From Candidatus Omnitrophota bacterium (lineage in GTDB: Bacteria > Omnitrophota > Gorgyraeia > VGKN01), in assembly GCA_020052955.1 (NCBI GenBank), contig JAGVOB010000004.1, positions 12,522-76,521 of the forward strand: a stretch of 64,000 nt of DNA, read 5' to 3'. Under the pieces are notes generated by a model. The model searched no databases. It saw only the letters and a program-made list of their open reading frames with translations, and had not been told where the DNA came from. Shown one piece after another: positions 1,359-46,300 of this stretch (within the stretch, counting starts at the first letter, position 1; every line of letters starts with the position of its first letter). A program made the translations under genes and the position numbers.

Positions 1359-4300
1359 ATGGTAGACTGGCAGACAGGCGGTAAAAAAATGTGGATTAGA
1401 CTAATAGCCTTGGTTATAGCCGAGGTTTTTTTATTTACATCGATAGACCTGCCGTTTAGTAATTCTAACGCATATGCGTCTCCCCAGGAAAAACTTGTTC
1501 CCCCCATGCTCACAGGCAAATCCAAGGCCGACTCCCAAAGAGCAAGAGAAAATGAAATTATAGAAGGTCTGCTTCCATATCTTTTGAGAGACTTGAGGCA
1601 GCTTTATCCGGACGAATCTGCCCAGCAGATAATGTTAAGGGTACATAAACAATATAGCGATAGGATTACATGGTTTTCGGTTATGGGAATGACTGAAGAT
1701 AAACTGGGTCAGCCGGGGCATACCTATGCCTTTTCAATAGATAATAAAAAGGAGCCGGCACATTTTATAAGCGTTACCGTAACAGATGGTGCGACAAAAC
1801 TCCAGCCTTTGGATAAGATAAGTTTTGTAGATGATATAAGAAATAACAGAATCCGCCCCATCTCATTCTCTAATTTACCGATAACTGTTGCAGAGGTATT
1901 TGAGGTTCAAGGGGCCGGAGAAGGCGGGGGAAAAGAATTAAATATTGTTAAACTAGACAGTACAGACTTACTGTCTAAGGCAGCGGGGCTTTCGGGCTTG
2001 CTAATTGGTTACAGCGCAGGAGAGGGTAATATTGTATGGCGCATAGTCCTTGGGCTCGATGGTGTTTTCCTGCCAGGCCCGGGCACTATTATAAAACTTT
2101 CTCAGATAAATGACCTGGCTCAGATACTCCAAGCCCTAAAGGGCGGAACTGGACTTCCACAGGCAGATTTAGAGTTAACCCCGGAGAGATTAAAGTTAAT
2201 CCCTGCTATAACAGCTCCAGGCGCTCCTCAATTCCAATTAGTAAGAGCCGCAGCCACTAAAGAGGATGCCTCAATCACAGATAAACCCTTACGGGTATAT
2301 GTCTCAGAAGTTAATGTTGCAAAAGAGCCAGATATAAAGACACATCCGCCTACGGGGCCTCCGACAGGCTCCCTTGGCTTGTCTGCCATTATTCATCAAG
2401 CACCTATCACAGTAACCGTTTCCCAAATAACACCCCCTACCACAAGTAAAGTCCAAGTAGCTAAAGTAGAACAACCTGTAACTCCGCCCGCCGAAGAAGA
2501 AACCGCTCAGACACAAGAATTAGCCGAGACAATAGCAAGCCTTCAAAGACAGCTTGACCTTGCAAACCTCCTTCTTTTTACTCCATATCCTTCCAAAATA
2601 ATTTCTGCGCTTAGTGAAGCAATTAGGGTTGCAGAAGATGCGCTTAATAAACCAACACCTGATTTAGAGTCTCTAAGAGTGGCTGAGCTATACCTTAGTA
2701 GTGCTATAAATGAAGCCGTTATGACAGAGCCGATATCATACGTTTCTAGCTTACCGCAAGCCACAACACCACCCAGCGTAATTCCTCCGCCAACAGCAAC
2801 CTCCGCCTCTGTTACGCCCGAGCTGCTACAGGTAGCAGTAATTGAACCAACCAAAGGTGCGGTTGTAATGCCAAGGGTAGGACAATTGGCTGTTAAATTA
2901 GCGGCACTTGAGCCAGCAGGCGCTGCGGGAGAAGTTATAGTTACGGGAACAACGAGCAGTGTTTCTTCAGCCGCACCATCAACAGCAGCGGTTCAGCCTC
3001 TAAGAGCGGAGAAAGAATTAAGGGTTTCTGCTCCTGCCGTACCGTCTTCTATCAGTCCAGCCACTCAAATATTAGAGATTGTGATAAGGGCGCGGGCGTT
3101 ACTTACCAAAGCCAACAAAGAAAATGTTGTGAGCTTGTTAAAACAAACTGATATCCAAATATTAAAAGCCGCCCAGACAGAACTCGTAGATATAATAGGT
3201 ATCCAACCGACAGAAATTATGGCAACAGATGCTATAAGAATTGTTAAATTTACGGGGGTTCAACTTTATTACCAAAACGGAATGCCATATCTGACAGAGG
3301 TTATTGGAAAACTGCAGATTTATGATGCCCAATTTGAGAAGTTGTTTAGACAGTTAGCGGCCATAAGAGCGAGCGAAACAGTAGAGATAAGAGGCGCGAT
3401 AGAAAAAGTTCAATTGGCAAAATGGCAGTTTATAACAAAGGTTGTGCAGGAAGCGATTATTTTAAGAGAGCCAAGCGCGGCTATATCTACGGCACATATT
3501 TCCCCGGCAGTAACTTCAGCTGGCACTGCTGGGGCTAGTTTACCTTCAGTGCAAGGTCCAAAGGTAGTTGCTCTGGCAGAAAAACAATCTACAAGAGCTG
3601 TTGCAACTACAACAGGACAAGCAATGGCTACTACCGGCGTAACCAAACCTATAGTTGCTTCTGCTTCGCTTCCCACTGCGAGATCGACAACACTCGGACC
3701 GGCTGTGCGAACAGCTAAGGTAGCTAGTACATCTATCGCAATACCTGAAGTTGCGCCAACGATAGCACCTGCAGTCGTTCCGCAAGTTAAACCATCCAAA
3801 ACTACAGCCACCGCTACTGCTGCCGCAGTTCAGCCAACCACCAAAGGTATTTTTATACCCGAGTCCATTAAAAGGATTATAGTTACAGTTTCCCTGCTGG
3901 GAGTTTTGATTTTACTGCAAAATATACTTCCTTTACCCGGATTAGACAAGCTTGGAATGGGTATAGGCAGTATGTTTGGAATGAAGAGTGGGATATTTGG
4001 CCTTGGTCTTCAGCCTTATATCATCGCTTCTTCCTTGGTTCAAGTAGGTGCCGCCTTTATCCCTGCCCTTAAGAAATATGCGGAACTCGGCAAAAGCGGA
4101 CAGGCGAAACTGGCCGGGTACACTATGATACTTACGCCTATTATTGCGCTATTTTTAGGATTCTCTAATTTAGCTTCTATTGGTGGTATGTTTGCAATTG
4201 GTGGACTGACTATTTCAGGCCCGTTATTTTTAATATTAGCAGTTTTGGGTATGTCTCTTGGTTCGTTCTTGATAGCATTTGTCGGGGAAAGGATAACCAA

Positions 4301-7300
4301 GCATGGTTTGGGTCAGGGCACAACACTTATTATATTTACAAGTATATTAACCTCAATCCTTACCTCAGGGGCATCTGTTTTAAGCGGGGTTTCTGCGCTT
4401 CACATTTTCTCCATTTTAGCGCTAGGTGTAGTAGCAATTGTTTTACATGTCGTTACATTTAAGATACCACTTAAATTTGTAAGCAACATTAAAGAGGTAA
4501 AAGGGGAACTTCCTCTTAGAATGAACTACACAGGCACAAATGCCATTATGATAAGCTCTATGTTAGCGTCGCTTTTAGGCGCTGCTATGGGCGGTTGGCA
4601 GGGTATACTTATAAACAGCATAGCCATACTGGCTATGACAATTTTTACCACATACAGCACATTTACTCCTGATAAGTTGAGCAAAAACCTAAGTGCTCTC
4701 GGCGTCCAAGTGCCGGGAGTAGACGAGAGTAAATTAGGAAGTTATATATGGCGAAAAAGACTTTTATGGATAACGATACTGGGCGGCGTGGCTGTGGTGT
4801 TACTCGCTGGCTTACCAGGTCTTATATTAAACGGATTTAATCCCGCGCAGGCAGGTCCTGCAGGAATGGGTGCGATATTCGGAGGAAGTACGTTATTGTT
4901 GTTGGCGAATGCGCTGGTTGAGGTTTGGAATAATATAAGATATGCAGGGGCAAAGGGAGAAGCGCGAGGAGAGATTCAGCTGGCAGCAAAAGTCCAGAAG
5001 AAACCTATTATAAAAGTAGCAGGGTTTACCATTAAACAGATTTTGCCTTTTGGTATAACAGTTGCAAGTTTAGCAGGGATAGTTCTATTAAGTAATTATC
5101 TTGCCACAATAGGCGCTCTTATCGCGTTTATGTCAGGTATCTCTGTATTCGTTGTAATGGCGGCTATAATTAGTGCAATAGGTTATGGCGTGTATCTTAT
5201 AAGAAAGCATCAAATAGATTTTAATAAGTCTGTGGAGTTTTTAGGTGAGCTTACAGCGGGCCCAGCGTTTTTAATAGAAAACAGGGTTAAAGATTTTATG
5301 AATGAAGCGGAGACTGCCGCTAACCTGCCAGAAAATAGCAGATTTATTGAACAGTATGTAGAAGCACATAGAGGCGTTGCCGAAGAGCTTATCTTAAGAG
5401 AGCGCGCCAAGACAGAGATTATGAGACAATATATCGTTAAAAAGACGCACGAACAGTTATTATCTGATAAAACCGCAAGCTATGAAGAGGCTGATGCGCA
5501 TCTAGGGAAAATAAGGATAGATGCCATTGCCTTAGGCATTACCGCAATACAGTTATACAGGAGACGCGTTTCGGGTGAGACCAGGCTAGAGGCAGATAAG
5601 CTTACAGGCGCCAAAAGGATTATAAGGGAAAATCCCGTAGCCGATTTTACAATTCATAGAAATCAGATATTCGGCATATGGTTTTTGACTGAGATTAAAC
5701 ACTTTAGGGGCAGATTTATGACATATTTAGTAAGGATATTGAGTCCGTTCCTTCCTGAGGAGGCAATGGCAAAGATTAAGGGGTATGCCGTACAGGTTCC
5801 CACAGGTGAAGGTAAAAAGGAAATGGTTGGAATTGCCGCATATGTAATGTCAAGGGCGAACAAGGGAGTGCTTTTGGCAACGCATGCGCCGGACCTTGTA
5901 TATGAACAGGCAGTGGATATGGGCGATATATTTGCCTCGTGGCTTGATACGTCAGTTGGCGCAGTAGGCATACCAAACGAACAGGGAGAACAGACGTATT
6001 ATACCTTCAAATATGATTCAGATATGAATGAGGTAGAGGTAAGGCATGAAAAAGAGACGGCCAAATTTATACCTGCATATGCGTGCGGCGCTACATACGG
6101 CACGATGTCAGCATTTAACTTTCATAAACAGTTAGAAAGGATGGGTAGAGAAATTAGAAGAATTTATTCTGCCATACTAGATGAGATAGACGAGATTTTG
6201 CTTATGCAGGGCGTAAACCCTCACATCATATCTAAAGGCGATAAGGATCCGTTTGTAGAATTGGTTAATCAGCATATGGAAGACATTCTTAAGGTTATCT
6301 CCAGATTAGAAGCCGGAGAGCTTATATATGAACAAGGCCGGGTGCAGTTGGTTAATGCAGGACGCATAGAGGAGATTCTTAAGGATAAAGCGCACTCAAG
6401 AGAGGTAGCGGCAATATTTAACGACTATAGAATCGCAAGCTTTATAATAGGACGCCTGGTTAAGGAGTTAGCTGATAATCCGGATAATTACACCGTTGAC
6501 GAAGAAACAAGAAGAGCAACATTAACAGATAATGCAAAGGAATATATCAAAGAGTTTCTCGGAATTCCCGATGATAAGAATCTAAATGAATGTCCGGCGC
6601 TTGCGCATTTTGTGTGGGCTGCAATGAACGTTCAATTTAACTGCAGAAGGACTACGAAAGAATTAAGCGATTTATTTATGGTTATCTCCCAATTAAGAAA
6701 GGGAGATGTTAGATTTGACGCGGCTTCTGGAAAGGCGAGTTTTGCTGATCAGGGAATTATAGAGAAGATACTACGAGACGAGGAGCGCGTAATGGCTGTA
6801 TCCAGCGTACTTAGCGATCCGACACGCCACATAATAGGTTATTTAATAGGAGAGATGCGGAAAGATAAAACCAATTTTGTTCTTAAAGATGGAAAACCAG
6901 CGTTAAGCGATAAAGGAAGTAGATATATAAAAGAATTCCTTGGAATTCCCGAAGAAGCAAATCTTAAAGATTATCCCAGTCTTTCAAGCTTGATAGAAAA
7001 AGCATCTGATTTTAGCGCTAAGCCGAATGTTTCTATAGAATATGGTCTGGTTGAGATTAAGGATGATAAGAGTAATATAATAGGTTATGACGTAGTAGGT
7101 TATAACTCATCAACAGGCCAGTGGATGATAGGCCAGACCTATACCGACATACATCAGGCTATGGTTATTAAGGAGTTGTTTGCTGAGGTAAATAAGGGCG
7201 TAAGAGGCAAGATACGCTTTGTGGCAGAAAATGAGGCTATAAGCCAGCAGATGAACCAGTTATTCCTTAAGGATTGTTATCATGAGGCGGGAACATCGGC

Positions 7301-10300
7301 GACTTTAGAAAGAGAGGCTGTAAGGAGAGAATGGGAGACTTTAGGCCTTTTGGTCAGGAGTCTTTCTAAGGATAGGGCACCTGCCGTTGTAAATTTAGGG
7401 GTTGATGTATATTTGACTCGCGAAGAAAAGGCCCAGCCTATTACTAGGACAATAGCCGATAACGGTCAAAGAATTTCCGGAACCCTCATAGGTGTTTTTA
7501 CGGACCAGGGGGTTAATTGGGCAAGATATACTCTTGCGCGCCAGTTGCGCGAAGAGGGTTTTGAGGTTTATATAATTGACCAGCATACAACACCGGAAGA
7601 GATTAAGATGGCTAAGGGAAAGGCTAAGGATTTAAAACATAATCCAGACCCAAAATGTATTTTCATCATGAACCCAAGAGGAAACCGCGGGGTCAACCTG
7701 GCCGGTACTGTCCCGGATCTGCTATGTATAGCAGCAGAGATACCCGACACTAAAGACGCCCTTATACAGTTACTCGGCCGTATCGGAAGGCAGGGCGTCC
7801 AATGTTTTGTAAAGGAGATATATTCCCTTAGCGATAGTGATTTGTTCAAGGAGCATAACAGAGACCTGTATAATAAATTTGTTAAAAGCGGCATGACAGG
7901 AGAGATTACAGGCAGGAGAAGGGATAGCGTTCTAAAAGGTATAGAGAGTGCGCAGGAGATAATGGCATTAAGGCAGTCCGGCTCGCGTATAGACCTCGGC
8001 AGGTTCTATGGGTTGGTTCATGAGACATCCCAGAGAAGATTCGCCATGGAGGAGGGTATAGGAAGGCGTTCTACAGGGGATTTGAGGAAATATATATTAG
8101 GTTTAATTGAAGAGGATATGAAGCCCGAGGTTAAGCTTAATATTTTAATTCTCTTAAGCCTCCTCAGCGAGGAAACAAAAGGGGCTGTTGTAAGTATTAT
8201 AGATGAAGCGATTATGAACGAGTGGAGTAAATATCTTTCAGGAATCCAAGACCTGATGAAAAAGATTCAACTTGCCCAGTTTAAAGGAAAAGATCCCTTT
8301 GGAGAGTTTGCTCTTGGAGCTGCGAGATTAAGAGATAGTTTTAAAAGAGAGGCTGCCCGCAATATTGTAATGGCTTTAGCAAGCGTACATCCAAAAACCC
8401 TTTTAGAGATAAAACAGAGATTAGATGAAGAAAAGAGGATAGAGAGGGAAGCGGCTGCCTATTTTGGGGAAAGGCAGGTTGCATCTGAAGGAATAACTTT
8501 TGCGCTTGAGCCTGCTATAACAGAGGAAAGAGTATTTAGTGCCGCCGGCATCCTTAAGGATTTAACATCTCTAGCGCTTGATAAATCAAGGGCACCACAG
8601 ACAGGGATGCTCCATATTAAAGTGGGCGATGCAGAATTTATCCAGATAGGAGGGCACCTGCAGCATGGTGCAAATGCACCTGTTGAGGTAGTCTCATATG
8701 GACAAAACGGCGATACAACAAGGCCTGTTATAATAGTAAAGCTGAATCGTCCGGAAGATGTGGATAGAAAATTTTTAGAAGATTTTCTGATTCCCGATTT
8801 ACGTATGAAAATTTCTCCTAATGCAAGGGTTATATTTGTGTATTCCGGAAGCGAGAAGGAATTTAAGGCAAAGAGATATGAGATAGCGAGGGTTTATTCG
8901 CTGGTAAACTCTATCTCCAAAAAACATACAAAACAGGCAATCACCGGTTATATATGGGACAAAACAAATGAATCTCCAGCGCTTGAGCAGATAACGCCTT
9001 ATGTTATTCCTGTTTTCGATAAACTTGCCCACTGGCTGTCAAGGCTTAAGACACGAGCTCCAACGAGAGAACAGCTTAAATATAATTTTGTTCAGGTTTT
9101 AAAGTCTATTAATAGGGAAAACATAAAAGAATTAATTACAAATATCACGACTTTCAGATGGCAGGATATAAATTCTCAGAGTTTATTTAAAGTCTTTGCT
9201 CCCTCCTTAATGGTTTTAGGTGCAGTATTGCTCCCGTTAAAAGTATGGCTCTCGGGAGCTGGTATATCCGGGATAGAGGCCTTAATTACACCCAAACCTG
9301 TCTTGACTCAACAGGCACAATATGCAGGGCAGAGTGCAGGGTTAAGCCCTGATGAAAGAAATGAGATTGCACAGGTTCCCGTAGGGCAGCAGGTTGCTCA
9401 AGAATCCGCAGTACCTCAAGCGGTTGTCAGGGCAGAGCAAGCGCCTGCTGTAGCGCCTCAAGAAACAACCGCTGAACAGGCTAAGCCCAGCATATTCCAG
9501 CAAGCTTGGGCTGGCATAACAGGTCTATTCGCTTTTACAAAGCAACCCACTCAAAGAACTCAAGAAACTCAATATACTCAAATTGGTTTACCCAGCGCGC
9601 CTTATCAAGAGGTTACAGTCGGCTCACCACCTCCACCACCTCCGGAAAAACTAAATCCATTCCAGCAGTTCTGGTCTTTTGTGACAACCTCTTTTAGCAC
9701 TAATACTAATATTGCTTCTGCCTACACAGGCGTACCTCAGGTTGAAACATATACGCGTGATTTGTTACCATGGGTCATATTTTTTGGCATATTTGGTAGC
9801 ATTCTTGGTGTAAGAAAAAGAGATTTAATTGGAAATTTCCTGCGCAATGGATTAACCAATATTCCTGGCTTTATCAAGATAGCAGTCCCTGTCCTTATAG
9901 TTATGTTTTTATTATCAAATTCTACGCCAACACAATCAGTAATTGCACCGCCCCCAGCCAAAGAAACAGTTGTGCCTGTTATTATACCTACTGTAGAGCC
10001 CATAAAAAATATGGCGGAACTGCCCGCTAAGATTGATGAATTTTACACTTCCACTGAGATTTCAAATTTATTACTTCCGCCCGCACTAATATCTCTACAA
10101 AATGTAGGTAATTTCTTAAAAGTGCTCGGAGGTACTTCTCTAAAAACTCCAGAGGAAATAGTTGCCCTTAAGCAGGCGCAATATCAGAGAGCCACAGGAA
10201 AGACAATGAGTGAAAGTAACCGAAGCCTTCTACTTGAGTTTGAAAGTAAGAGGAACGACCCAGCTTCTTCGCCCGAGGAGGTATTTCAGCTATACAGTAG

Positions 10301-13300
10301 AATCGCAGGGAATCCAGAAATTGTATTTGACTATGGAAGCAGTATGGCTATTTGGGTCGAATTTAGAGAGAGTTTAAACTCGCCGGATAGTGCGAAGATA
10401 AAAGTTCTTTTAAATTCAATTTTATCCATTCCTCAGTTAAGGGATTTTATAAATAAGAAAGACCCAGCCCTTATCAAAGATTTAGAGCTTGCCCAGAGGG
10501 TTCTTTCGGGAGAGGTAAAACTTACCCCTGAGGTATGTGAGGTATTAGAGCAACTCGGCGCTAAGCTCACCGATTTAGGGAGAGATAAAGATAATCATGA
10601 AGAATTACTCAGAATTGATAATGAATTAAATCAGGTTATTCTGGATACTTCAAACCAACTGTTAAGCAATATATCTGAGGAAGAGTTGGAGAATTGGTTT
10701 AAGGAGAGAGGAATTACTATTTTGTGGGATGTAAAGGAAGAAGAAAAGCAATTCAGTAAACTTTATTTAGCTACATTAATATCACTTTTCTCCCTGTCAC
10801 AGATTCCGCCAGAGAGATACAGGGACTTGAATATAAGGATTTCTAATGATAGCTTTGCCTACAACTTTAAGACCGATACCATGGAATTTAACTTTCAAGA
10901 TACATTTGAAGGCTGGTATCCGATAAGAAGCGGTTTAATTGATTCAAGGACCACATTAGTTCATGAGATTTCTCATCGCTGGGACCTTAAATATCTGTCT
11001 GAAGACCTAAGAGCCCAGTTTTATAATATCAGCTGGGACTTTGAGCAGGTAAAGCAAAGACAAAGAGAAAGGGATGAAGCAACTGAGAAAGGGGAGAGGG
11101 TTATAATTTTGGACAGCACGAGAGAAGACGCGAATTTAGACAGGGATTTTCTGTGGGGGCACATTGTTCAAGGAGAACTTTCAAGTGGGATGGCAGTTGA
11201 AGACATAGCAAGAACAGTACAGGTCTTATATACAAATCCCTCTTTTGCTGTTAATAATGCTATTGATAACATAACTGAGTATGGAGACCCTGATTTAGCC
11301 CAGAAGATATTTTTCGCTTATGGGTTTTATGGGAGTGTCTCCAACAATGAAATATGGATAATACGCAGTGATGGCGCACCAGTTAATGAGGATGATGGCG
11401 TATATGTTTTTAAGCGAGATGGCAAGGTGTTTGAGGTAAAGATTGAAAATGGCGTAGCTGCAAAACCGCGCGAATTACCCGCTGATTTTAACCCAAATCC
11501 TTTCATACAGAAGTTATTTTCTCAAGCAACACCTCCAAAGCAATTTAGTCTATTGGATGTTATCACGGTCCGTGGCGCCTCTGCGTATACAGGCACAGGG
11601 CAGACAGGAATATTTACGCCTGATGTTCTTGGGTTAGTTGTATTCTTAGGTATATTTGGCGGTATTATTGGCATAAGAAAAAGAGATTTAATTTTTGATT
11701 TTCTACGTCGTGGCTTATCTAATATTCCACGTATCTCGCCACGTCTTGTTATAACTATGCTGGTTCTGTTGCTTGTAGCTACCTCTTGTGCACCGGCACC
11801 AACCGGGGGAAATCCTCGGTCAATAGCAACTTTGGCTCCCCCATATGAAGTAACCGAGACATTAATACCACCTGTTAAAGCTACACCACTTCCAACCGCT
11901 ACACCTTATGCAACAGTAGGGGATTATTTATCCAAAAAAGGTTTACCCGGCACTGTTTCTGAAGCTGAACTATCAAGATTTACGAGCCAGTTATTTGAAA
12001 AGCTTCTTGAGGATATGTATAAGGAAGGAACGCTTCCAAAAGTAGCAGGTTACGAAAAGGTATATACAGAGTTTATTCAGACATTGCGTAAACCCGGCGC
12101 TGTTAAGGTTTCTCCAGATACAAATGTTTTCTATTATATTAACCTTCACTCAGAATTACTTAGTAACGGTGTAATAGCGACAGATATACTTGTAAATAGA
12201 GGTATTATCAGTCCCGATTTTCCGCTTGATTTATTAAAGGATACCTTAAGACATGAATTTGTGCATTTTGTAAATAAAGACCTTACAAGAACCAAACTTG
12301 TGCTTAATGAAAGACTGAGAGAAGCTCTTATAAAGGCATACTCATTGCCGATACCTCAGGATAAAGATAAGGACCCGGACGATAGAGGAATGTATTTATA
12401 TAATAATTTTATTGAGGTACTCAAAAAGGACCAGAATCTGAGAGAAGATATAAAACGCCTGATAGCGGTATTTGTAGAAGACGAATACCTTGCATATGTT
12501 CAGGAGGCAAAATATACGAAAGTGTTGAGTAGTTTGCATCCAGAGTTGCGTATGCACGGTTTCTTTAATCCTGATGGCACAGTAAGGGATGAGATGGGTT
12601 TAAGGCTATGGATACTTGAGAGAACCATCCCGTCTATAAATCCGCACCTTCATCAGTTAGCAAATGAGATAGAAAGAATAGAAGGCAGGGCAGATTACTA
12701 TCCAGTTCCTGCTGGCGAGAAGCCTTACCGAAGATATAGCTTTAGAGCAGCCCATCCCCTAACAGGAAAAGAAGTAATTATTTCTTACCCTCTTATTATA
12801 CCAAAGGTTCTAATCAAGGAAGAAGTAGGCGGTGTTAAAACAGCACTTGGTCTTCCAGAGGAGATATTCGGAGAGGTTGCTCCATATTTTAGAAGAGAAC
12901 AATTAAGAGGAAACTATTTTGAATATCTTAAGAATAAGACTTATAAGGATTACAGAATTCTAGCTCCAAAACCAACCTCTATGTTACCACAGGATACCCT
13001 TATTAGCTTTGCCGGAGATTTAGTTACAGGCTTCCTTACGGCTAATGCCGTCCAGGCCGCAGGCCCAACACTGACCTCGACTAAAGCAGAAGTTGATATT
13101 CCAGGCCTCTTGCTTGTAGGCGGTGCCTCCTTGTTAATAGCCATATTTGCAGTTGCAGTAGCAAGGCCCTTGGGCGGTATGTTTAAGTTTGTATTCAATC
13201 CCCTGCCGTTATTGGTTATCTTAGCAGGAATCCTGCTTGCATATTTAGCGTCTACCGCTACTGTTTATCCTGCAACCCTTACCCCGGAGCAGGCAGATAA

Positions 13301-16300
13301 AGCCGCAACGGTAATTGAAGAAGTATTAAGAGCCCCCACGCCTCCGGGCGCCCCGCAGAAAGACCCGAATAATGAGAAATTCCTCAAATGGCTTGCAGAG
13401 CAGTTAAAGAACTGGGCAGCCCATCCGGAAAGGGGACTTCCGCCTATAGGGGGTGGCCTTATACAGAAACTGGCAAGCCAGAATGAGCAGGCAAGAAAAC
13501 TGCTTGAGGATATTGTGTCCGGAAAGGTAAGGATAATAGTTGATATTAGTTCTGGCGCATCAGTTGAGAAGGCGGGCTTACATCTTAGGTCTATGGCTGA
13601 ATATGCCTTAAGAAATGGTGGTATAGTTGATGGCCAGCGTGTCATATTCTTAGGGATTGAGCCAAAGACAGGCCTGTTTGACGCAGCAGTAAGGCAATTG
13701 GCTAATACTGATAATGTAATCTTAATTCAGAGCGGGCTTGGCAAGCTTCCGCAGGAATTTAAAGGAATAGTATTACCTGACCTTAAATTCTGGAGAGTAA
13801 TTGTTACTGCGCCTGAGCCTGATATGCTGGCAAAGGATTTTGGATTACTTACAGACGCAGCAAGATTAGCGCAGGACAAGGTAATAGTAGTTACCGAATT
13901 TATGCCCACGATGAAAGCGCCTGTGCCAGGAGGGCTTGAAAGCACTCCTTGGTTAGATGCCCTTAAACAGACTTTATCAGCCTGGCAGTATAATCCTGTC
14001 AGAGTAACATCGGATAAAGTGCCTGCATTTATAAATTCAGATACATTTAGATGGTTACAGTTAGGCAAGAGCCAGGTTGAGGGGCTTCGCTGGGGAGGAG
14101 ATTACTGGTATCATGAATTTATGAGAAATGGCGCACCTTCAATTATAATCCTGCCATTTATTCTTGAGAGCCTCAAGGAACAGCCGGTTGTTCCAGCCAC
14201 TCCATCTATTCCTACCCCTGTTTCAGGCATGCCTGGCATATTATCGGGCGTAGGTATGGCATTATCCTTTGCATTATTGGGCGGGGTAATGAGCGTTGTA
14301 TTTATAAAATCTCCGAGGCGTGCAAGAAAGTTTATTATAGCCTTAGCAGGTGCGTTTACGTTAGCTATGCTCTCAGGCGCTCTGATGCCTACCTATGCGG
14401 CAGAAAGACAATTGGGCTTAGGCGTAGTTACTTATAAAGAGAGCGGCCTTGGAGACTATGTTAACAGGTTAAATGCAGATATAGGGGTAAAGGCATTAGA
14501 CCAGGTTGAGATTTTACCCAATACCCTATTTTCTTTTGACTCTTACGTTCAAGGATACATATCTGAGGGCCATCCCCTTAAGGGCGATAAAGAGAAATTT
14601 GGCGCAGGGCTTTGCGATGTAGCAACAGCCCTCAGGCGTTCAATAGAAAACAGTTATGGGCCTCCTGTTATCGTAGAACTTGGAGAAGATGATGTTAGTT
14701 CAGTTGCCTCCATTGAATTCCCTCAAAGGCTGGCTAATGCGACTGTAATCGGTTTTAAACTACCGCGATACGCGGCGATAAATCAGGAACAGGCAAATGC
14801 ATTACTGAGCAGGGTATTAGAAACTTATCCAAATGTAAAGATTGCGTATATATATACCTCTCACGGTGAGGAATTTTATAACGGAGAGGGCGCTTCCGTA
14901 TTTTTCTATGAGAATTTAACAGCGAGTTCACCGCGCCAGGATATCTGGCTCTTAACACAAGAGCCATACCTGATTGATACTAATAGCCCGGATGATACCT
15001 TGCAGGAATTAAACATAAGTTTAATTTCTAAGGCAGCGACAACAACCGAAGACGCGCTTGCCGAGGAAGAGCAATTCACCTTATCAACCCTCCTATCTTA
15101 TCTGACCACCTCGGAGATTAGAGCCCAGGGAGCAGGCGATATAATAACAGCAATTTTAGCCATAATCATTATGGCTGTGTTAGGCAGGGGAAGAATTCCT
15201 AAATTTATTAACGCAATACCCGCACCTTCCGGCAGAGGACGGTTTAATTTACGCTTACCTTCATTGCTAAGGGTTATTGTTTTAGCAGGTTTTGCTCTGG
15301 CATTAGCCGCCTGCGCAACTGCGACGCCACAGCCAACCCCGACACCAATAAGCCAGGCGGATATACCGTCCTATACCGAACGCGTACTTTCCCAGATTGA
15401 TGAGGGAAAATATCCTTTACTGCGGGCAGAGCTTAAGAGAGTAGGCGTAATCAATAACCAGATAGAATATCCGGTAATGGTTGAATATGGCTTAAGCGCT
15501 GACGGCAAAACAGCCACTATTAAGAGCGTTACGATAAATCCCGAGCTTTTCCTTAATATGCCGGCAAATATAAGGGAAAGCTATCTTCTGCACGAGGAAG
15601 AACATTTAAGCCCCGCGAGCCTTGATTTGGCTCGGGCTATTCAAATATTGAATAAACATTTCTTCGGCGGCATAGATTTATCCAAATCAGAAAAGGAAAT
15701 AATGGAGGAATTAAACCGAAGAATCGTAAACGACCCCAAAGAAAGAGAATTATTCAAGCATTACGTTGCCCTGCGCGTCCAATATGAATATCTAGGCAAC
15801 AGGAAGCAGTTTGATTACATACTTAATAATCGGATAGATATAAATAATCTGATAAGCAAAGAACAAAACCCCGGCGTTAAAGCGGTCTTGGGCAATATAA
15901 ATGAATTTATGCAGGTAGCCCAAATTGACAAGCCGCAAGCTCAGATAAACGAGAGAATCTTTAAAATAGCGATACTCAGAAACCCAATATGGAATGACCC
16001 ACGGCTAATTTATGATTTTACCCTGGCTATTGAGCAGATAGAGCATCCCGAGCTTAAGTTAGTACAATCCGGCGGCAGATGGCAGATGAGCCCGGCTTAT
16101 ATAGGCACTGACGGACTTCCCACTCTGCCGATATGGGATTATCTCACCATACCTGATTATTATTCGCCCGATATCATAAATACTCTCCAGCAGTCTGCAG
16201 TTGGCGTGCCCCACCTTGCAAGGCCCGTTTCGCCCGCTCTGACACAGCCCCTGACTGCAGGCCAGACAGGCATATGGGCAGTTATTATAGGTATATTATT

Positions 16301-19300
16301 TAGTATCTTATTTATAAACAATCCTATTACAAGAAGATTCAAATTAACTTGGTTAAAGCGCATTGCTATTTTAGGAGGTCTTCTCATTCTATTGACCGCC
16401 TGCTCAAGGCCACAGGCTTTACCAACTGCAACACCTACTATGACACAAACCGCAACCTATACCCAGACGTCCACAGCCACGTATACTTCAACGCCGACAC
16501 AAACATTCACACCGACATCAACTTCTACACCGACAGAAACGCCGACATCTACGCCGACCGAGACGCCGACCCAAACGCCAACTTTGACGCCTACAGCAAC
16601 ACCTTTACCTCTCCAGAATTTTTTAGCTGGTGGAACTAACATTGGAAGCTGGTTGATATTTTTCATAGGATTTGGCGTATTATCATTTGGCGTTATAGTC
16701 CTATTACATAAAACAATTAACCTCAATAGCATTGGGCTTACATTAGGAGGTTTAATAGTTGTAGCGCTTGGAGCTGTTGGTTTGTATTACAGCTCTCAAG
16801 TACAAAATTTCGCTAAGCCGGCAACTGCTATCCAAAAGGCAATAGACTCTACAACGCTTTTTCTTGTCAGGGCAGGCGTCTTTTTAACAGGAATAGAAAT
16901 AATGTATTTATCAGCTCTGGTTATCTCTTTCATCTTAAGTAAGATTAAAATATTAGGACCATTCGCGAAGGTTTTCAGCTTGATAGGTAAGATATTGAAA
17001 ATACCGCTAAAAGAACTGTTAAAAAAACCGGTACTAGGACTAATAACTCTCGCGATAATTATTCTCCCATTTCTTATGCGCCTTATTCCTTTGCCAACCT
17101 CTTATGCTATTCAGCAAGGAGACTTTCAACTGATAGAAACATTACTTTATCTCAGGCATCCGATAACAGTAACTGACAAAGATGCACTTATACAAATAAT
17201 AGGCAAATTATATGATGAGGGCAACGGCATCACGCGATTTTATGTTGCAGACCCTTCAACAGGAGATTTAAAAAGCGTTGACGCGTACTATCTGCTGGCA
17301 TATCCCGAATCAATTAATTTTACTCTAACCCGTGAAAAGGACAAGGACGGCTATTACATAAAGATACAGGAAAATAAGATACAAGAAATTACTCCTACTC
17401 CTCAAGGTTCTATCCCGGGTGCACCACACCTTGCAAGACCCACTATGCCAGAGAGCCAGGTTGCTGTCTCGGGGGTGAATACCCTGTCCACATTTATTAT
17501 AGGTATATTATCCCTTATCTTATTCACAAACAATCCTATTACAAGAAGATTCAAATTAACTTGGTTAAAGCGCATTGCTATTTTAGGAGGCATTCTCATT
17601 CTGTTGACCGCCTGTGCAACTGTGACTCCAGTGCCTCAGGAGGCGACAATACAGCCCGGAAGCCTTGAAGAACTGCAAGTGAGAATAATAGAAAACAGGC
17701 TGATTAATGAACTCTTATTCAATTATGAAAACCAGGAGGCAATAATACAGGTATCCCGGGAATATGAAGTTGACCCGCGATTGTTAACCTCTGTTGTTAT
17801 GATGGAGATTGCAAGCCGCGATCCAAGTGAAGATTTATGGGATAATTTAAAAGATGAAGCCAGGGAAATATTAAACAGAGACCTTGAGGCTACCTCTTTC
17901 GGTATAGGACAGATACGAATTGACACAGCGCGCGATATGCTCGGCTACCTAAAGGCAGAGAACAAGCTCGGCGATTTGGAACTCGGCTACCTGATACAGG
18001 AATCATTTTCGGATGAGAATATAGAGAAAATCCTTGAAAACGACCATGACAATATCTACATAGCAGGAAGGTATGTAAGATGGATTATAGATACATTAGA
18101 AGGCGCGGGCATAGAGGCAGATATTTACACCGTAGGATTCGGCTATAATGGTATCGGTCGGATAACAAACTTTGATGAATTTGAGCCGGAAGTGCAGCAG
18201 GCGATAAGTGACTACAGGGCCGAACACACAGAAATATTCAAGCTGGTATATAATGCCACATACTACGAGTCATTGCTGAAGATTAACTATCTGCCTTCAT
18301 GGTCGTCATATCTTCTGGGAGCGCCTTCTAGCGCAGGAGAATTTATCAATGGTTTCTATGATGCCGATTCAGTCGGTTTTAAGAGCTACTGGGCGGTTTA
18401 TGACGGCGTATATACAAAACCGCATAACATCCTTCCTGAATTTAGCGGTTTATACAATGCCTCCGTATTCGGCGAGGTGCGCTCAGGAGCCATTAACCTT
18501 CCTGACGGCAGGGTTCTTCAGATGTACGAAAACAGCATCCTTGAGCTTACCTCCAATGGCATAGTCAAGCAGTATCCGTATGCGGCGTATATTTTGCAGG
18601 GGATGCGCTCGGGATTCGACCAGGATTTCATAAATCATCTATCGGCATCGCCCAATGTGCCGGGGAAATTCTCTAATTTTATAGCCTCAAATAATATCGG
18701 GGCACAGCTGGGCTCGCTTCTTACTGACGCATTTGACATGAAAAACTTCCCAATTGACGGCGGTGAAAAATCCGTCAGGATACAATTCTTTGAAGGAGGC
18801 GTGCTCATAGCGGAGAAAAATTTGCTTGGAATTCCCGGGGACGTAAGGCTTGCCACGGTAGATTCGGTAGTCAGATATCTTGAGTCAGTGCACTCCTACG
18901 CATATGATATGCCGCCTTACGATCCTCTCTTAAAACCGCAGCCGGCTCCAACATCAACCCCGCTTCCAACGCCTGAGCTTGGGTCGTATATTGTGCTTTA
19001 TTCGGTTGGCCAGACAATAGAGGTGACTACAAAGCAAGCCATCATTGATGTTATTATGGCCACTAACCAGCGGAGGATAGCTCATCAAGAAGAGTCCATT
19101 CAGTATTTCTATCCCGAGACCCAGTGGACAGGCGAACCCTATGCCCATTATCTCGGGGATGTAACCAGAGAGAGCCTTGTCGAGCTTCTTAAGGATTTCC
19201 CTGACTCGGGATTTATTATGCGCCTTACACTCCAGCAGGGTGACGTCGCCCCGTTTATCAGGATAACCGAGATTGAAACAACAGGTGCTGTTTCGCCCGC

Positions 19301-22300
19301 AAAACAATTCAGCCTGCTTGATTATTTATCAGTAGGCACTGCACAGGCAAGAACGCCTGGTGTCCTACCTACCCTAACATCTACATTTGACTGGCTGGGC
19401 TTGGGATTATTGGGATTATCGTTAGCCCTTGCATTCGGCATAGTAAGACTTGCCCACCTACGCGGTGGGACAGGGCGGCTTAGTCGAAATATTTTATTGT
19501 GGGCGGGAGTTGCTTTGGTAGTTAGTATTGCCTTAGCCAGCGGTATCTTTTGGTATTTTACACAGGATATGTCCTTTAAAGATTGGACAGCGGGCACGGC
19601 TTACTTTCACGAGCAACAAACTAAACTTATAGAGCCTATAATTAATACAGAAGATGTTCCGTTAAGAGACACTGGTTTCAATTTTCAAGAACTTGATTTG
19701 ATATGGCATCGGTCAATAGATAGTTTAATCTTAGATCCTAATAGACCCGAGGAGTCCAATCTTTCGATGCGGAAGCTTAATTTTATCCTGTATGAGAGGT
19801 TTTCCATAGGTTACTACCCAAGTTGGTGGCAAATCTATGAAATTCGCAGGAATTTTGTTGCGCAGAATTTTGATGAAATTATAGCTCTCATTGAAAAACT
19901 TAATCCATCCGATTATTCAGATTTTGCAACTCAGTGGCAAGCAGTACGCTTGAGAAATACCCTGATACGGCTTGTTTGCGATGGAATAGTAAGAGGATTT
20001 CCATCAATTGATTACAATAAATTGGACATAGTAAAACCAATTTTGCTTAATGATGAATTAATTGTTAAATTTGGTTGGAATTATGCGGGAAGCAATTTAA
20101 TGGATTTATTTTTAGATAAGAAAAATGACCTACCTCCTCTGATTCCCCCTGTCATTAATGAAGCACAAGCAGAGAGAACTCTTGATTTATTTACTAAATT
20201 ACTCGAGTCTTATAATAACACCGATTATAGCACGCTAAGCGAAAGTGATTCTAATCTGCTCTATTTCTATGAACGCAACGAGGTAACAGGTATTGCTATG
20301 CAGGAACCACTTAAATTTGAAGCATGGAGAGAATTAGCACAGTCTCTGAAGTACCTTTCTGATTATGCTCCTACTCAGCGTATCCGTGAACGCGCAAACA
20401 ACTTACTTTCTCGTATTCCGTTAGAAATTGTTAATGACCCTCGCATTGAAATAGCAAATAGGGAATATGGAGATGGGACGCACTATCTTACGCGTGAATC
20501 ATATCAAACTGCGGTAACTTACTATGAAAACCAGATGGGTTTGAAGGGAATACGTCAAATCCCGATTTGGGATGTTAACGCGGTAGCCTATGTTAGAAGA
20601 GAAGTAACACCTAAGATGTTAGAATATTTTGCTGAAAGCTCTCAAGCCCACGATGTGCCTGTAGATTTTCCCATAATTATGTGGTTACGAGATGATATGT
20701 TCCAAGCTAGAATGCCGCTATATACAATTGGAACTGGATTAGCTCACATTAAGACATTTTTTAATTATGATGGTGTTGGCGGTCGTATCGCAGATACTCT
20801 ACTTAGAGTACTTCCGGATTGGTTTTTGAATAAAGCTCTAGAGGATAGACCTGCAAAAGCTATTTTAGGGCTTATCTTTAATTCAGCTGGTTCGTTGACA
20901 ATGCAGGTGCGCGTAGATAGACCACAGAATACTGATGATTTAGGTATACGCTCAGATGGTTTATGGGAGCGTTTGGTTAAAAAGGGTTATGTAAGTGACC
21001 CCGCAACCCTTTCTAACAGAGAAGTTACATGGCTTTTGTTAACTGATCAGCGGCTTGCGATTGAAGCGGGAACAGCGATGTTATCAAGAAAATTCCAAGA
21101 CCCAAAAACTGGAGATTCCTTTAGACAAGATTATTATAATTATCAACGCTTGTTACCGGAAGGTTTTGACCGTCGAAGTCTTATAAGAGGGTGGTTTGCC
21201 CCAAATTTTTATAGTATATTTGGACCTAATCTGGGATTTGAACTTTATGGTGGTTATCTTACAAATGGCATTGCTATAGGAGAAGACTACTTTTTCGACC
21301 TTTACCTCGTCCTGTTAGAATCTGGTGTCTTGGATTCACTCTATGGCGAACCTGTCCCTGCGATTATAGTGGGAATCTCAAAGTTAGAAGAGTTAAAACA
21401 GGTGGGCAGATGGGCTAATGGTAGAGATGCAGGGAAGGACCCATATATCCAAGAGGCAGCACTGCGCACTCTTAGGGAAATAGCTCAAGATACAGAACAT
21501 CCAGAGATGGCTATTGAGGCTCAGAGGATACTCGGCATACTTGAACAAAAGAGCGCCCTCGCAGGCATAAAGACACAAGGCGTAAGCAATATCTGGCAGG
21601 GTTTGGCTATGGTATTGAGTTTTGGTTTAATTGGAGGGGTGTTTGGAGGAGTCTTTACGCCCATAAAAAGATTAAGAGACAGGTTGCAGGGAAGGGTTAA
21701 GTCAAGGACACTCGCCAATATATTAACAGGAGTTGTATTGGTTCTCGGGCTAGGCCTGATAATCGGATCCGGTTATGGAATAGCTTTATTGATTAACTAT
21801 CTTACACCATTTAATGTCCAGACACAATATCTCACAATTACCGATGCCTCTTATAAAACTACAGACCAATCGCGTATCGGCGAGGTGCTTGGCTTTTCTA
21901 ACGATATGCCTGTAATCTCGCCTATCCAAGGGCTAGACGTAAATGTTGACCTAAAAAGCAGTGTAATAGACGCCAACATATTAAACTTTACTATCAGCCC
22001 AAGAGAGGGCGAGACCTTAGAAGGTATAGAGGGCTTTGTAATTATAGTTATAAAGGATAACAGAGGCAACGAATGGCATAAGCCAGTAGTTATTCAACCC
22101 AATCAGAGCGAGTACTCAGTAGTTATACCCCCAGATAACAACATAGAATCCATAACATTTAGTTCTCATATATTGGATGATAAAAGGGTAAACATATCCA
22201 ATATAGCGCTTACCAATGGCATGAATGTGCCGGTAATCATGAGCAATGGAACCATTAAAGCAGTGCCCGCCCACATAGACTCAGCCAAGCATAACCTCAT

Positions 22301-43300: not shown

Positions 43301-46300
43301 AAATGAGCTTATCACCCTCCGTACTCCAAAGCCAACTATCTCTGATATAGGGAGGATTACCACTTCTGTAACACCGGCTCCTGCAAGCGACACATCTATT
43401 GTGGTGGATATGGCAAGCGCTGACTGGAACGGCCTTACAAGGCTTATCTCAGATAAGGGGCTTGTGTTTGATAAGGGAACTATTGATTTAAATAAGATAA
43501 TCATTGGGAATTTAAACGGCAATATCTCTGCATTCGGCAGTTATCTCGCAGCAATTGTTTCAGCAAGGGATATGGGGATTATCACTGATGAAGAAGCAAA
43601 AATAAGGATAATGCAGACACTAAATGCGCTCCAGACGCTACCTCGTGATAATAACGGTTTCTTATACTCGTGGTATGATGCCCAGACAGGAAGGCCTCAG
43701 CCCATCACGGGTTATGCAATGGTTGATGGAAAACTCCAGCAGGTTACAGGCTATCACGTCTCCTCTCTTGATAATGGCCTTCTGGATTTGGCTTTAGAGG
43801 GAATAAGAGAAGCCTATAGGGATGACGAAGAAATCACTCCAATTATAGATAGCCTGCTTAGCCATAACTACTCTGCATTCTATGATACAGAGAAGCAGAT
43901 GCTTGGAGTGGGCTATTTTGATGTCCTTGGAAACCTCTATTATGAAACCAGTCACTATAGCACCTGGGGTTCTGAGGCAAGGGCAGTTGTGGTATATGCT
44001 GAGGCAAAGGGCGACATACCCTCCGGCACATTTGCAAATCTTTATTCTAATGTAAAAGGCTATACCACTGAGGCAGGAGAGGAGATTTTAACCACCAGTT
44101 TCTTCCAGGGCTCTGGCCATCAGGTCTTTGTGCCGGAGATATTCTTGGGAGAGAGCAGGATGTCGCCTCAGGCAAGGGCAATTCTGTTAAATTATTCAGC
44201 CATAATGCTGGATAAGGGTGTATTTATCAGCGCAGCAGAAAGCCCGATATGGTATATCGCAGATGCAGGAATCAAAGATGTCAGCGAAAATGATGTTAGG
44301 GAAGACCTGCTTGTTCCCTATGCCATATGGCTTGCCGCTTCTGTTAACCCCCAGGAGATGACAAATAGACTCAACCAGCTAAGACAAGATCATCCCGAGA
44401 TGTTCTCTACCCAATTCGGCTTTGCTGACAGTATGGTTACACAGGATGGTGGTTTAGGAGAAGCAGGCACCGTAACCCGAAAGGTTCTTGCCATTGACCA
44501 CGCCTGGTCTATTATGAGCGCTTATTCTGCCATTGACGAAGACGGCGGATTTAGCAAATATGTCAGGCAGTCAGATATAGGAACAAGAATAGCCACTGTA
44601 TATCAGGGCATAGATAATCAGACTCGCGATGCCGTTCGTCCGAGACAGGTTCCTCATGTTCCTGTAGGTATTATAGCAGGAATTACAATTAGTATCGTTG
44701 GCGTTATTGTAGGAATTGTTCTATTAATCTTAGGTATAAGGCGCTCTAAAGAAAAAGCCCGGCCGCAACCCGAAACAGGCGTTACGCCTACTCCGGAAAC
44801 ACTACCTTCTCAGGAAACGCTGTCATCTCAACCTGAAGCAGCCCCGCAAGTGTCTCAAATGGCTATAATTGGCGGACGCGCACCACCTCTAAGAGATTTA
44901 AGTCTTTCGCCTAAAGAAAGGATAACCCGAGCGCTTGTCCAGCTTACCGATGTTAGCGTAGAAGATATAGATTTTGAAAGCATTGAAGTGGAATACGAAA
45001 CACCAACCGGATTTGTATATATAGTAAAAACAAAAATAACTAAGAAAAAATTCTTTGTTGAGATAGTCAGGCGTTATGACAGGGATAAGGCTCCGTTTAA
45101 AGTTACTGTCAATGACAAAGAAATTCCATTTGCAGAAGGCGAGTATATCAAGGTCGCAGATGGTAAGAGAAAGGTATTAGGCTTATATTATAACTTAAGC
45201 GCTATAAAAGGATTTAGCCCGAGTAGCGAAGACGCCACTAGAATTCGAGAAAGAGAAGAAAGGTATTATAATAATGTTTTAGGGTTTGTCCAGGAAATCG
45301 CCTCTAATCCCCAAAGCGTTCCCAGATATATTATAAATCTTGAGGGTATAAATACAGAAAAAAGCGAGTTAAGAAATAAGATAGGCCTTCTTAATCAGAA
45401 TATAGCAACCCTCCCGGAAGGATATAGAGCAGAGATAACCAATACTACTCCTAACGAAGAATTACCAATTCAACTTACTCTTTTACCCACCTCTCAACAA
45501 ACAGCAAGACAGATTTCAGAGGATGAATTAGATGCTATAAGAGTTAAAACCAAAGAGGCAGAATTAGCTGAGGCTGGAAAATTAGTCTCCCAGACAGTTA
45601 CACAAACAAAGCCTGTTCCATCCGAAATAAGAGGGTTCTTTAACAAAATCGGCGCTATCCTAAAAGGTGAGTATTTCTATAATGGCGCGGATTTAACAAA
45701 GGCAACTGCTCCATTTTATTACTTAAAGGTGGTAAAGAAGGTTAATGAAAAGGGTGAAGCAGTAGATGAAACAGAGTTTCAGAAATGGGCTTTAGTAAGG
45801 GATATAGCCCTTGTCTCAATACTCGGAATAATAATTGCATCAGTTTCTATTTTAGGAATATACACAATTCCGACTATACTTGCTGTAGGTTTAGTCACTG
45901 GTTTTGGACTAATTGTTAAAGGAATTCAGGCAAGGTATGAAAAGGGGTTTAAGATAGGCCTTATTGTCAGTGCATTTAGTTTTATATCTTTATTTGTCGC
46001 ACCCCTTTTAGCCCTTTCTATAACAGGCATCATTATAGGTTTTGCAAGTATTTCTGGGTATGGTTTTGGTAAATGGATTTTAAAACAAAAGGCAGAGACT
46101 CCCATAATAGGTATTATAGCTTTGCCAATTTCACTTCTTGGCATAGTTGCTGGTTTGGGAATAATCTCTGTCTTTGCCATTAATGTTGCTGTTGCTTTTG
46201 TAGCTTTTGCCTATGGCATATATAAATGGAGAAAAGAAGAGGATATCTCTGCAGTTGTAAAGCCCTTTGCAATTTCTGTTTTTATGCTCTCCCTTTTACC

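Follow-up and report, generated by a model that had tools for sequence, protein, structure and literature searches.

A SecY-like channel and a SecA-like motor joined in one chain of a giant Omnitrophota protein: a candidate dedicated translocase

We describe a stretch of 64,000 nucleotides (nt) from a Candidatus Omnitrophota bacterium (GenBank assembly GCA_020052955.1, contig JAGVOB010000004.1, positions 12,522 to 76,521 of the forward strand), referred to here as the window, which is filled almost completely by a single uninterrupted open reading frame (ORF) encoding a giant protein of 20,408 residues. Within this protein a SecY-like channel, two accessory transmembrane (TM) helices and a SecA-like motor follow one another in one chain, an arrangement which had been proposed from the letters of the DNA alone (below, the sequence-only reading) and which is borne out by matches in Pfam, in the PDB and with AlphaFold2 (AF2) models. 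The unit had been delimited as 3846-7850, corresponding to residues 830-2164 (the codon of residue n starting at nt 1359 + 3(n-1)); the unit is real, but this end drops the scaffold helix and finger of the motor, the module ending about 630 nt later, at nt 8483. That the region encodes a SecY-SecA translocase of natural origin, made as a single chain within a giant polytopic membrane protein, has in our estimate a probability of roughly 0.5.

The channel, the extra helices and the motor

The principal parts, all on the forward strand (+), are these.

1359-62585 (+): giant ORF, host of all the parts; start codon backed by an AAGGG motif resembling a ribosome-binding site and by the conserved N-terminus of a paralogue
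3855-4973 (+): SecY-like channel domain, residues 833-1205, with ten TM helices, placed by Pfam, phmmer, hydropathy and AF2/Foldseek
5040-5171 (+): two extra TM helices, residues 1228-1244 and 1255-1271, predicted as an in-out-in hairpin after SecY TM10
5172-5483 (+): linker between hairpin and motor, residues 1272-1375, predicted cytoplasmic and mostly helical
5484-6278 (+): SecA-like NBD1, residues 1376-1640, with Walker A GEGKK at nt 5805-5819 and Walker B DEID at nt 6180-6191
6279-7178 (+): counterpart of the SecA preprotein cross-linking domain (PPXD), in which EFLGIP occurs twice (residues 1732 and 1859) through an internal duplication specific to this lineage
7179-7898 (+): SecA-like NBD2, residues 1941-2180, with motifs III (GTSAT), V (NPRGNRG) and VI (GRIGRQG, nt 7776-7796)
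7899-8483 (+): SecA-like helical scaffold and two-helix finger, with a 51-residue helix at residues 2186-2236 and the fingertip F2308 followed by KGKD at nt 8280-8294
8484-9182 (+): conserved cytoplasmic domain without an assigned function, residues 2376-2608, between the motor and the first following TM helix, shared with an Omnitrophota fragment (P0001)
9183-9233 (+): first downstream TM helix, residues 2609-2625, where the chain is predicted to exit the cytoplasm

Judged by its sequence, the channel is a SecY-family domain and not a housekeeping SecY. The Pfam family PF00344 (SecY) covers residues 879-1187 (E = 9.5e-38; 130.7 bits against a cutoff of 32.2), and phmmer comparison with PDB chains aligns residues 833-1205 to essentially the entire bacterial SecY (residues 66-421 of Geobacillus 5eul_Y, E = 2.5e-18, and residues 11-386 of Thermus 5ch4_Y), from which it follows that all ten TM helices, TM1 to TM10, are present; a hydropathy scan likewise gives ten peaks within the interval, and the loops obey the positive-inside rule in the canonical orientation, with both termini inside (N-in/C-in). 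The core of the AF2 model, built from 150 sequences, has a predicted local distance difference test score (pLDDT) of about 90, and its Foldseek matches are exclusively SecY/Sec61 (5aww_Y, E = 1.6e-14), with TM-scores of 0.62-0.76 against bacterial SecY (0.68-0.76 when normalised to the target). The pore ring was located by alignment to E. coli SecY, which carries Ile at six ring positions (I82, I86, I187, I191, I278 and I408) and Arg at 357; on this mapping the ring is formed by L884, I888, T988, I992, M1064 and L1181, and so is hydrophobic at five of six positions.

Other SecY hallmarks are altered. The C5-loop arginine of SecY (E. coli R357) normally docks free SecA and ribosomes. Of 13 housekeeping SecY sequences, 12 have R or K at the corresponding position, where seven of the fusion proteins described below have D, D, T, A, P, P and A, with Asp in the window protein, and the SecY GNG motif is changed in all of the fusions. 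The first periplasmic (plug/P1) loop of the window protein and its nearest relative, L001, is 23 aligned residues shorter, the FSGG motif of the plug being among those missing; most other fusions retain the plug (TM2a) residues with FSGG.

The accessory helices, which the sequence-only reading had placed at 4996-5212, lie within that span and are separated by a 10-residue uncharged loop, with K/R-rich stretches on their flanks; both are found in every member of the fusion family. The suggestion that they resemble SecE or SecG is not supported: neither PF00584 nor PF03840 gives a match, SecY being the sole Pfam family on residues 830-1347 at E<=1, and in the AF2 model the pLDDT of the helices (42-70) is too low for their placement to be read. 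SecG has an N-out/C-out topology, which an N-in/C-in hairpin does not fit. A SecE/SecG identity for the pair thus lacks support from the sequence and from a confident placement in the model.

The SecA-like module extends from about residue 1376 to about 2375 (nt 5484-8483). PF07517 (SecA_DEAD) is matched at E = 5.5e-10 (39.4 bits against a cutoff of 24.6), and the NCBIfam models of SecA and SecA2 cover NBD1, NBD2 and the C-terminal helical part, the best at 4.5e-16, with scores far under the cutoffs of the SecA2 equivalogs. In the window the PPXD family SecA_PP_bind reaches 20.0 bits against a cutoff of 23.5 (E about 1e-3) and SecA_SW (PF07516) 19.5 bits against 26.7 (E about 1e-3); in two relatives the PPXD match exceeds the Pfam cutoff (P0002, 28.8 bits; L002, 24.4 bits), and PF21090, within NBD2, is also matched in relatives. 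A profile built from six members of the family matches 60 canonical SecA sequences, at 3e-29 to 3e-8. Motif by motif, the window protein has PTGEGKK where canonical SecA has TGEGKT, DEID for DEVD, GTSAT for GMTGTA, NPRGNRG for NMAGRGTD and GRIGRQG for GRAGRQG, and its finger motif IQLAQF-KG-KDPFGEF aligns to the two-helix-finger consensus IGLRGY-GQ-RDPLxEY. The Mg-coordinating Thr/Ser of Walker A is replaced by Lys in the window protein and L001 and is T or S in the other members. As a separate observation, the PPXD duplication (6550-7050), with its repeated ...YIKEFLGIP..NL.. unit, does not occur in the FCPU426 and Firestonebacteria relatives.

The AF2 model of the motor has a mean pLDDT of 73.5 and forms the helix-loop-helix of the finger, with the loop K2309-D2312 directly after F2308. 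Foldseek aligns it over about 1,050 columns, with SecA or SecA2 at each of the top 34 ranks, the best target-normalised TM-scores (0.66) being to the SecY-engaged SecA chains 6itc_A and 5eul_A; the SecA2 structures 6sxh and 4uaq are also among the matches. Channel and motor were modelled as separate AF2 chains, the full unit comprising 1,546 residues. The zinc- and SecB-binding SEC-C tail (PF02810), which most of the retrieved canonical SecA sequences carry, has no match at E<=1, and the motor as modelled has the complete SecA architecture except for this tail.

Distribution, descent and selection of the fused unit

The comparison with other giant genes which the sequence-only reading had proposed shows that SecY-like and SecA-like domains do occur together elsewhere: the unit of SecY, two TM helices and SecA is found in at least 8 giant ORFs from independently assembled sequences of different projects. 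Searched exhaustively with HMMER, 1.84 billion representative sequences yielded no homologue at E<1e-30, the top matches being large fragments that hit the SecA-like part, followed by ordinary SecY proteins of 430 residues; among the fragments, P0002, P0003 and P0011 carry Pfam SecY and then SecA_DEAD. Six loci (L001 to L006) came from scanning 185,579 species genomes for the pattern; all are open end to end, two of them over more than 20 kb, and in all of them SecY lies roughly 100-240 residues upstream of the SecA-like NBD1. Wherever sequence is available upstream of the SecA-like domain, SecY precedes it. The loci are labelled as an 'uncultured Planctomycetia' metagenome-assembled genome (MAG) (L001), FCPU426 (L003 and L005) and Candidatus Firestonebacteria (L006), the rest being unclassified MAGs. 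L001 is 90-94% identical to the window; after it, the closest SecA-like relative is P0001, whose record belongs to a Candidatus Omnitrophica MAG. Sequences clustering with P0002 bear the label Paceibacterota, and the records are annotated 'hypothetical protein, partial'. A metagenome scan returned no new members and only two canonical secA genes, and a viral scan returned nothing; a word-index search with residues 830-2414, for which the index is ill-suited to this family, gave no relatives, and one with a four-member alignment from SecY to NBD1 gave three ordinary SecY proteins only.

In neighbour-joining trees the 8 of 8 fused SecY domains form an exclusive clade apart from 97 housekeeping SecY proteins, and the 9 of 9 fused SecA-like modules one apart from 62 canonical SecA proteins; a phylogenetic placement against the housekeeping proteins had been proposed in the sequence-only reading. 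The two trees give the same internal grouping of the fusions. Identity to the housekeeping proteins is about 24% for SecY and about 21% for SecA, and the monophyly of the fused clades could be inflated by long branches; a single origin is nevertheless suggested by the fusion as such, by the extra hairpin that the members have in common and by their common loss of R357.

These data bear directly on whether neighbouring housekeeping secY and secA genes have been merged by misassembly, a frameshift or a wrong genetic code. Metagenomic giant ORFs can indeed be assembly chimeras. Against this, the same order of SecY, two TM helices and SecA recurs, open end to end, in at least 8 independent assemblies, the domains fall in clades apart from the housekeeping proteins, and 61 kb are free of stop codons and conserved at the coding level (dS far above dN, the synonymous and nonsynonymous substitution rates). 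Moreover, bacterial housekeeping secY lies in a ribosomal-protein operon and not beside secA. An artefact of this kind is extremely improbable.

Selection was estimated by comparing the window with L001 codon by codon, segment by segment, with the following dN/dS ratios and amino acid identities.

SecY segment: dN/dS 0.13, 91% identity
Extra helices: dN/dS 0.21, 88% identity
Linker: dN/dS 0.21, 91% identity
NBD1: dN/dS 0.21, 93% identity
PPXD: dN/dS 0.19, 88% identity
NBD2: dN/dS 0.06, 96% identity
Scaffold and finger: dN/dS 0.26, 87% identity
Upstream of SecY: dN/dS 0.54, 49% identity
After residue 2608: dN/dS 0.42, 63% identity

The SecY-SecA unit is under purifying selection and is the most conserved comparable part of the gene, which argues against a decaying remnant. 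The question arises because the unit could also be seen as a repurposed or partly degenerate, non-conducting piece of Sec machinery acting as an anchor, a scaffold or a regulatory ATPase, a reading that would fit the low identities, the loss of R357 and GNG in all fusions, the short plug and Walker A lysine of the window lineage, and the window's PPXD and wing/scaffold scores below the Pfam cutoffs. Yet every sub-domain is under purifying selection, most strongly NBD2 and SecY, and the retained pore ring, aromatic fingertip with its KDP motif, motif VI arginines and PPXD would be needless in a mere anchor; the full SecA architecture is likewise kept at the level of the fold. We consider a non-conducting remnant improbable.

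By contrast with the constancy of the unit, its surroundings change. In L004 (residues 982-1219) and L002 (residues 2159-2463) a GH5 cellulase and an NTP-transferase lie upstream of the SecY-SecA unit. Since the upstream enzymes differ between relatives, the cargo appears to vary widely around a translocase unit that stays the same.

Topology and cargo of the giant protein

TM helices were called with a hydropathy script. Ten helices of SecY and the extra pair make twelve, an even number, and together with the K/R-rich inner flanks they place residues 1272-2608, including the motor, in the cytoplasm; the sequence-only reading had treated a SecA-like domain outside the cell as evidence against itself, and charge and parity both put the motor inside. 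The single TM helix proposed to follow the motor is found at residues 2609-2625. From there to about residue 8178, TM parity and charge agree without exception: between residues 2626 and 8178, thirteen short inner loops of 8-34 residues, each with 1-8 K+R (2 or more in 12 of the 13), alternate with outer segments of 31-1,137 residues, mostly domains of hundreds of residues. Hairpins of the start-transfer/stop-transfer type bound outer domains of 81-1137 residues. The proposed pattern of extracytoplasmic modules re-inserted through such hairpins is clear for residues 2626 to about 10,430, but does not extend to the C-terminal ~2,700 residues, which are predicted to be cytoplasmic.

Several hairpins end in a lipobox, by which we mean a K/R-containing n-region, a hydrophobic h-region and the motif [LVI][ASTVI][GAS]C.

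11625-11795 (+): TM hairpin 1, lipoprotein-type signal ..LLLVATS-C3477
15132-15314 (+): TM hairpin with lipobox ..ALALAA-C4652
16266-16412 (+): TM hairpin with lipobox ..LILLTA-C5015
17475-17624 (+): TM hairpin with lipobox ..LILLTA-C5419
25182-25319 (+): TM hairpin with lipobox ..LVLVLTA-C7984

Thus, of the giant's 27 cysteines, five stand in a lipobox that closes the second hairpin helix, where 0.13 would be expected by chance (P about 2e-7). Four of the sites have the form L-[AT]-[AS]-C, and that at residue 3477 reads V-A-T-S-C; all five have a K/R-rich loop before and a Pro/Thr-rich linker after, their internal position being atypical. Similar sites occur downstream of the unit in L002 (residue 4801) and L005 (residue 3004), and 6,823 residues of L002 contain just two cysteines, one of which sits in a lipobox. 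These helices look like internal lipoprotein-type start-transfer signals, and their arrangement suggests that the giant may be a polyprotein cut and lipidated by Lgt and Lsp. More tentatively, the giants may use their own SecY-SecA to export later segments, with the lipoprotein signals restarting export and Lsp cutting the chain into lipoprotein enzymes.

Four HExxH motifs (nt 10962, 12252, 15591 and 61716; residues 3202, 3632, 4745 and 20120) were observed in the giant. Three of them lie in predicted extracytoplasmic modules right after hairpins and may mark zincin peptidases; one is in the hydrophobic C-terminal region, with a faint match to DUF3267, a 'putative zincin peptidase' family. No significant Pfam family covers the HExxH regions. 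Further on, from 26841 to about 35000, a module of about 960 residues is repeated in tandem, twice in full and a third time with its opening segment (residues 8495, 9458 and 10378); each copy opens with QLQQQPPYL, a hairpin and an RRNKRR loop, and the module includes LRV/HEAT-like repeats. There are also clusters of about 8-10 TM helices at 45756-46838, 49056-50108 and 53500-54500, which could be further membrane machines or transporters; Pfam searches of these three clusters and of two exported modules gave nothing useful.

Two features lie near the ends of the ORF.

56778-60848 (+): C-terminal enzymes, comprising a PRK/uridine kinase (residues 18474-18661), a cytidylate kinase (residues 18731-18896) and an HD domain (residues 19757-19830)
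1389-1457 (+): N-terminal hydrophobic segment MWIRLIALVIAEVFLFTSIDLPF, signal-like, whose motif recurs in the paralogue at 63082 and in P0002

The C-terminal domains are assigned by Pfam (PRK/uridine kinase, E = 5e-18; cytidylate kinase, E = 3e-25; HD phosphohydrolase domain), and nucleotide-metabolism enzymes of this kind would hardly be expected in a protein presumed to act at the surface or in attack. The N-terminal segment contains E/Q and D and resembles a signal peptide whose site would read AYA-S. We also considered that it might be like a type IV pilin or Flp and dropped the idea, since position -1 is not Gly and P0002 has Gln in place of the Glu.

Beyond the giant, a second gene (63082-64000) begins 497 nt past its end and runs out of the window; its N-terminus MIDWQTGNHKFWLKLITLVIAEVFLFTSIDLP closely matches that of the giant, of which it is probably a tandem paralogue. 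Upstream, at 139-927, lies an ORF of 262 residues with an N-terminal membrane domain and without a Pfam family match. An Rfam search of the window gave no match.

Self-export, its alternatives and what the unit may mean

The architecture of the giant suggests, at what we judge to be even odds, that the unit is a dedicated translocon for the extracytoplasmic modules of the giant itself. In such a scheme the housekeeping Sec/YidC machinery would insert the SecY-like part, and the tethered motor would dock on its own channel, creating a dedicated translocon at very high local concentration beside the translating ribosome. SecA is needed to move the long periplasmic loops of membrane proteins, a step which this chain would require again and again. 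Each later hairpin would then enter as a loop, its stop-transfer helix joined by a short cytoplasmic loop rich in K/R to a helix resembling a signal peptide; the latter would leave through the lateral gate, and the motor would push the next domain of 80-1,100 residues across the membrane. Where this helix ends in a lipobox, Lgt and Lsp could lipidate and cut the chain, leaving a string of membrane-anchored lipoprotein modules, several with HExxH. A private translocon would also spare the few housekeeping SecYEG channels over the many minutes required to translate 20,000 residues, and the loss of the C5-loop arginine would fit a permanently tethered motor.

A number of observations weigh against this reading. 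At the level of the domains, the equivalog scores are far below their cutoffs (TIGR00967 for SecY, 77 bits against 253.6; NF009538 and TIGR00963 for SecA, 58 against 814 and 43 against 800), the GEGKK form of Walker A makes ATPase activity in the lineage of the window and L001 uncertain, and the changes in GNG and R357 together with the short plug could equally mean an altered or lost channel function. At the level of topology, the hydropathy script used to call the TM helices is not a trained predictor. TM parity counted to SecY TM1 clashes with the N-terminal segment as a normal N-in signal, because an N-in/C-out segment would make SecY TM1 begin from the wrong side of the membrane, and the same problem is present in P0002. 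After residue 8179 at least three weak TM calls (residues 8179, 8945 and 9325) break the parity; K/R-rich loops at residues 8520, 9483 and 10403 contradict these breaks, and the weak peaks are probably false calls. The sidedness of the helical-repeat region of 3,400 residues that follows (about 10,436-13,900) is uncertain. The C-terminal ~2,700 residues, with their kinase and HD domains (within about 17,700-19,950), are cytoplasmic by TM parity. Much of the giant is thus probably extracytoplasmic, yet several thousand residues, including ATP-dependent kinases, are probably cytoplasmic, and the original idea that all of the remaining 18,000 residues are exported has to be abandoned. Finally, the unit lies >2,740 residues into the ORF in L002, >2,815 in L004 and >1,185 in L005, with TM helices and large loops upstream of it, and for this reason it cannot be a strict N-terminal threader of everything after it. 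To judge from these relatives, their upstream parts must rely on another translocon or on post-translational or in-trans handling. The machine described as self-contained is real and conserved, but it is not strictly N-terminal in these three relatives.

The internal position of the unit in these relatives also invites a different scheme, in which it acts in trans as an accessory translocase that exports other proteins such as prey-directed effectors, the products of neighbouring genes, or other giant copies or fragments, the giant itself being a membrane platform; parts upstream of the unit could not be served in cis co-translationally. Pairs of SecA2 and SecY2 provide a precedent, the Foldseek matches of the motor include SecA2 structures, and cutting by Lsp at the internal lipoboxes, if it occurs, would turn the pieces into separate proteins anyway. 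The substrates that West-Roberts et al. consider possible are 'the giant protein itself, or accessory proteins' (bioRxiv 10.1101/2023.11.21.568195). On the other hand, the window offers no candidate substrate, the neighbours being the 262-residue membrane ORF and the second giant-like gene, nor any Asp-like or glycosyltransferase accessory genes, and although the remainder of the giant is not conserved between phyla, its covalent linkage to the unit is, which suggests the giant chain as the partner. We regard action in trans as rather unlikely, and self-threading by the giant as plausible.

How does the unit compare with known systems? With canonical SecYEG-SecA it shares the ten-TM SecY fold, the hydrophobic pore ring, NBD1, a probable PPXD, NBD2, the scaffold helix, a two-helix finger with an aromatic tip, and a motor on the cytoplasmic face. 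It differs in that channel and motor form one polypeptide within a protein of 20,408 residues, the C5-loop Arg and GNG are lost, two more TM helices follow the channel C-terminally, homology to SecE or SecG is not detected, the SEC-C tail is missing, and scores fall far under the equivalog cutoffs. The accessory SecA2/SecY2 system of Gram-positive bacteria is similar in being a second, divergent pair for one or a few very large surface proteins, encoded together with its substrate; there, however, the parts are separate genes, accompanied by Asp1-5, glycosyltransferases and a separate serine-rich repeat adhesin, whereas in the window SecY and SecA are fused in one ORF and no asp, glycosyltransferase or serine-rich-repeat substrate genes or domains were found. 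The unit is therefore outside both the housekeeping SecY/SecA equivalogs and the accessory Sec system, while in spirit it is akin to SecA2/SecY2. Autotransporters (type V) are alike in concept only, in that one polypeptide comprises a passenger and a domain aiding membrane crossing; they operate at the outer membrane with a beta-barrel and no ATPase, and there is no homology.

An engineered fusion of SecY and SecA in the same order is competent for translocation in vitro (Sugano et al. 2017, PMC5562318). As in our case the C-terminus of SecY is joined to the N-terminus of SecA, and a covalent 1:1 unit translocates; that construct, however, is artificial, consists of housekeeping parts, needs SecE and SecG, has no extra hairpin and takes its substrate in trans.

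The closest published context is the survey of giant proteins by West-Roberts et al. (bioRxiv 10.1101/2023.11.21.568195), according to which most giant Omnitrophota proteins, and some actinobacterial ones, carry divergent SecA_DEAD/PPXD domains in a separate long-branch clade, with ordinary SecA and SecYEG genes elsewhere in the same complete Omnitrophota genomes. That study already proposed a role of the SecA domain in exporting the giant itself, described the giants as being without the scaffold/wing region, and posed the anchoring of the motor as a question. The window protein resembles those giants as a giant host with many TM helices and in belonging to the same long-branch SecA clade, its relative P0001 coming from an Omnitrophota MAG. 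It is unlike them in that SecY lies directly upstream in the chain, the scaffold helix and finger are present, and the family extends to FCPU426 and Firestonebacteria; on the evidence of the AF2 model, the published absence of the scaffold does not apply to the fusion family at the structural level. A 2026 Omnitrophota preprint describes a 20-protein SecA_DEAD architecture cluster and does not mention SecY, and the supplement of one giant-gene preprint has no SecY/PF00344 entry. A literature search of incomplete coverage found no report of a natural SecY within a giant, of SecY and SecA fused in nature, or of the full SecA architecture in such proteins. Divergent SecA domains in giants and the idea of self-export are thus already published, and what is new here is the SecY fused into the chain, the extra hairpin that the family conserves, a SecA of complete architecture, a family reaching beyond Omnitrophota, the estimates of selection and the internal lipoprotein signals.

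How proteins of 10,000-100,000 residues are made, inserted and exported is a question left open by the surveys of giant genes. For the orphan SecA of those surveys, and how it reaches the membrane, a SecY fused directly upstream offers a concrete and testable answer. The fusion would be the first natural covalent 1:1 SecY-SecA unit known to us; as such it bears on the debate about translocase stoichiometry and provides a compact, single-chain object for structural work, while the loss of R357 in a tethered SecY constitutes a natural experiment on the purpose of that contact. If the giants are polyproteins processed by the ordinary enzymes of the envelope, their size and function would need a different reading; and if self-export is combined with cutting by Lsp, such a gene would be, in effect, an operon plus its secretion machine written as one polypeptide.

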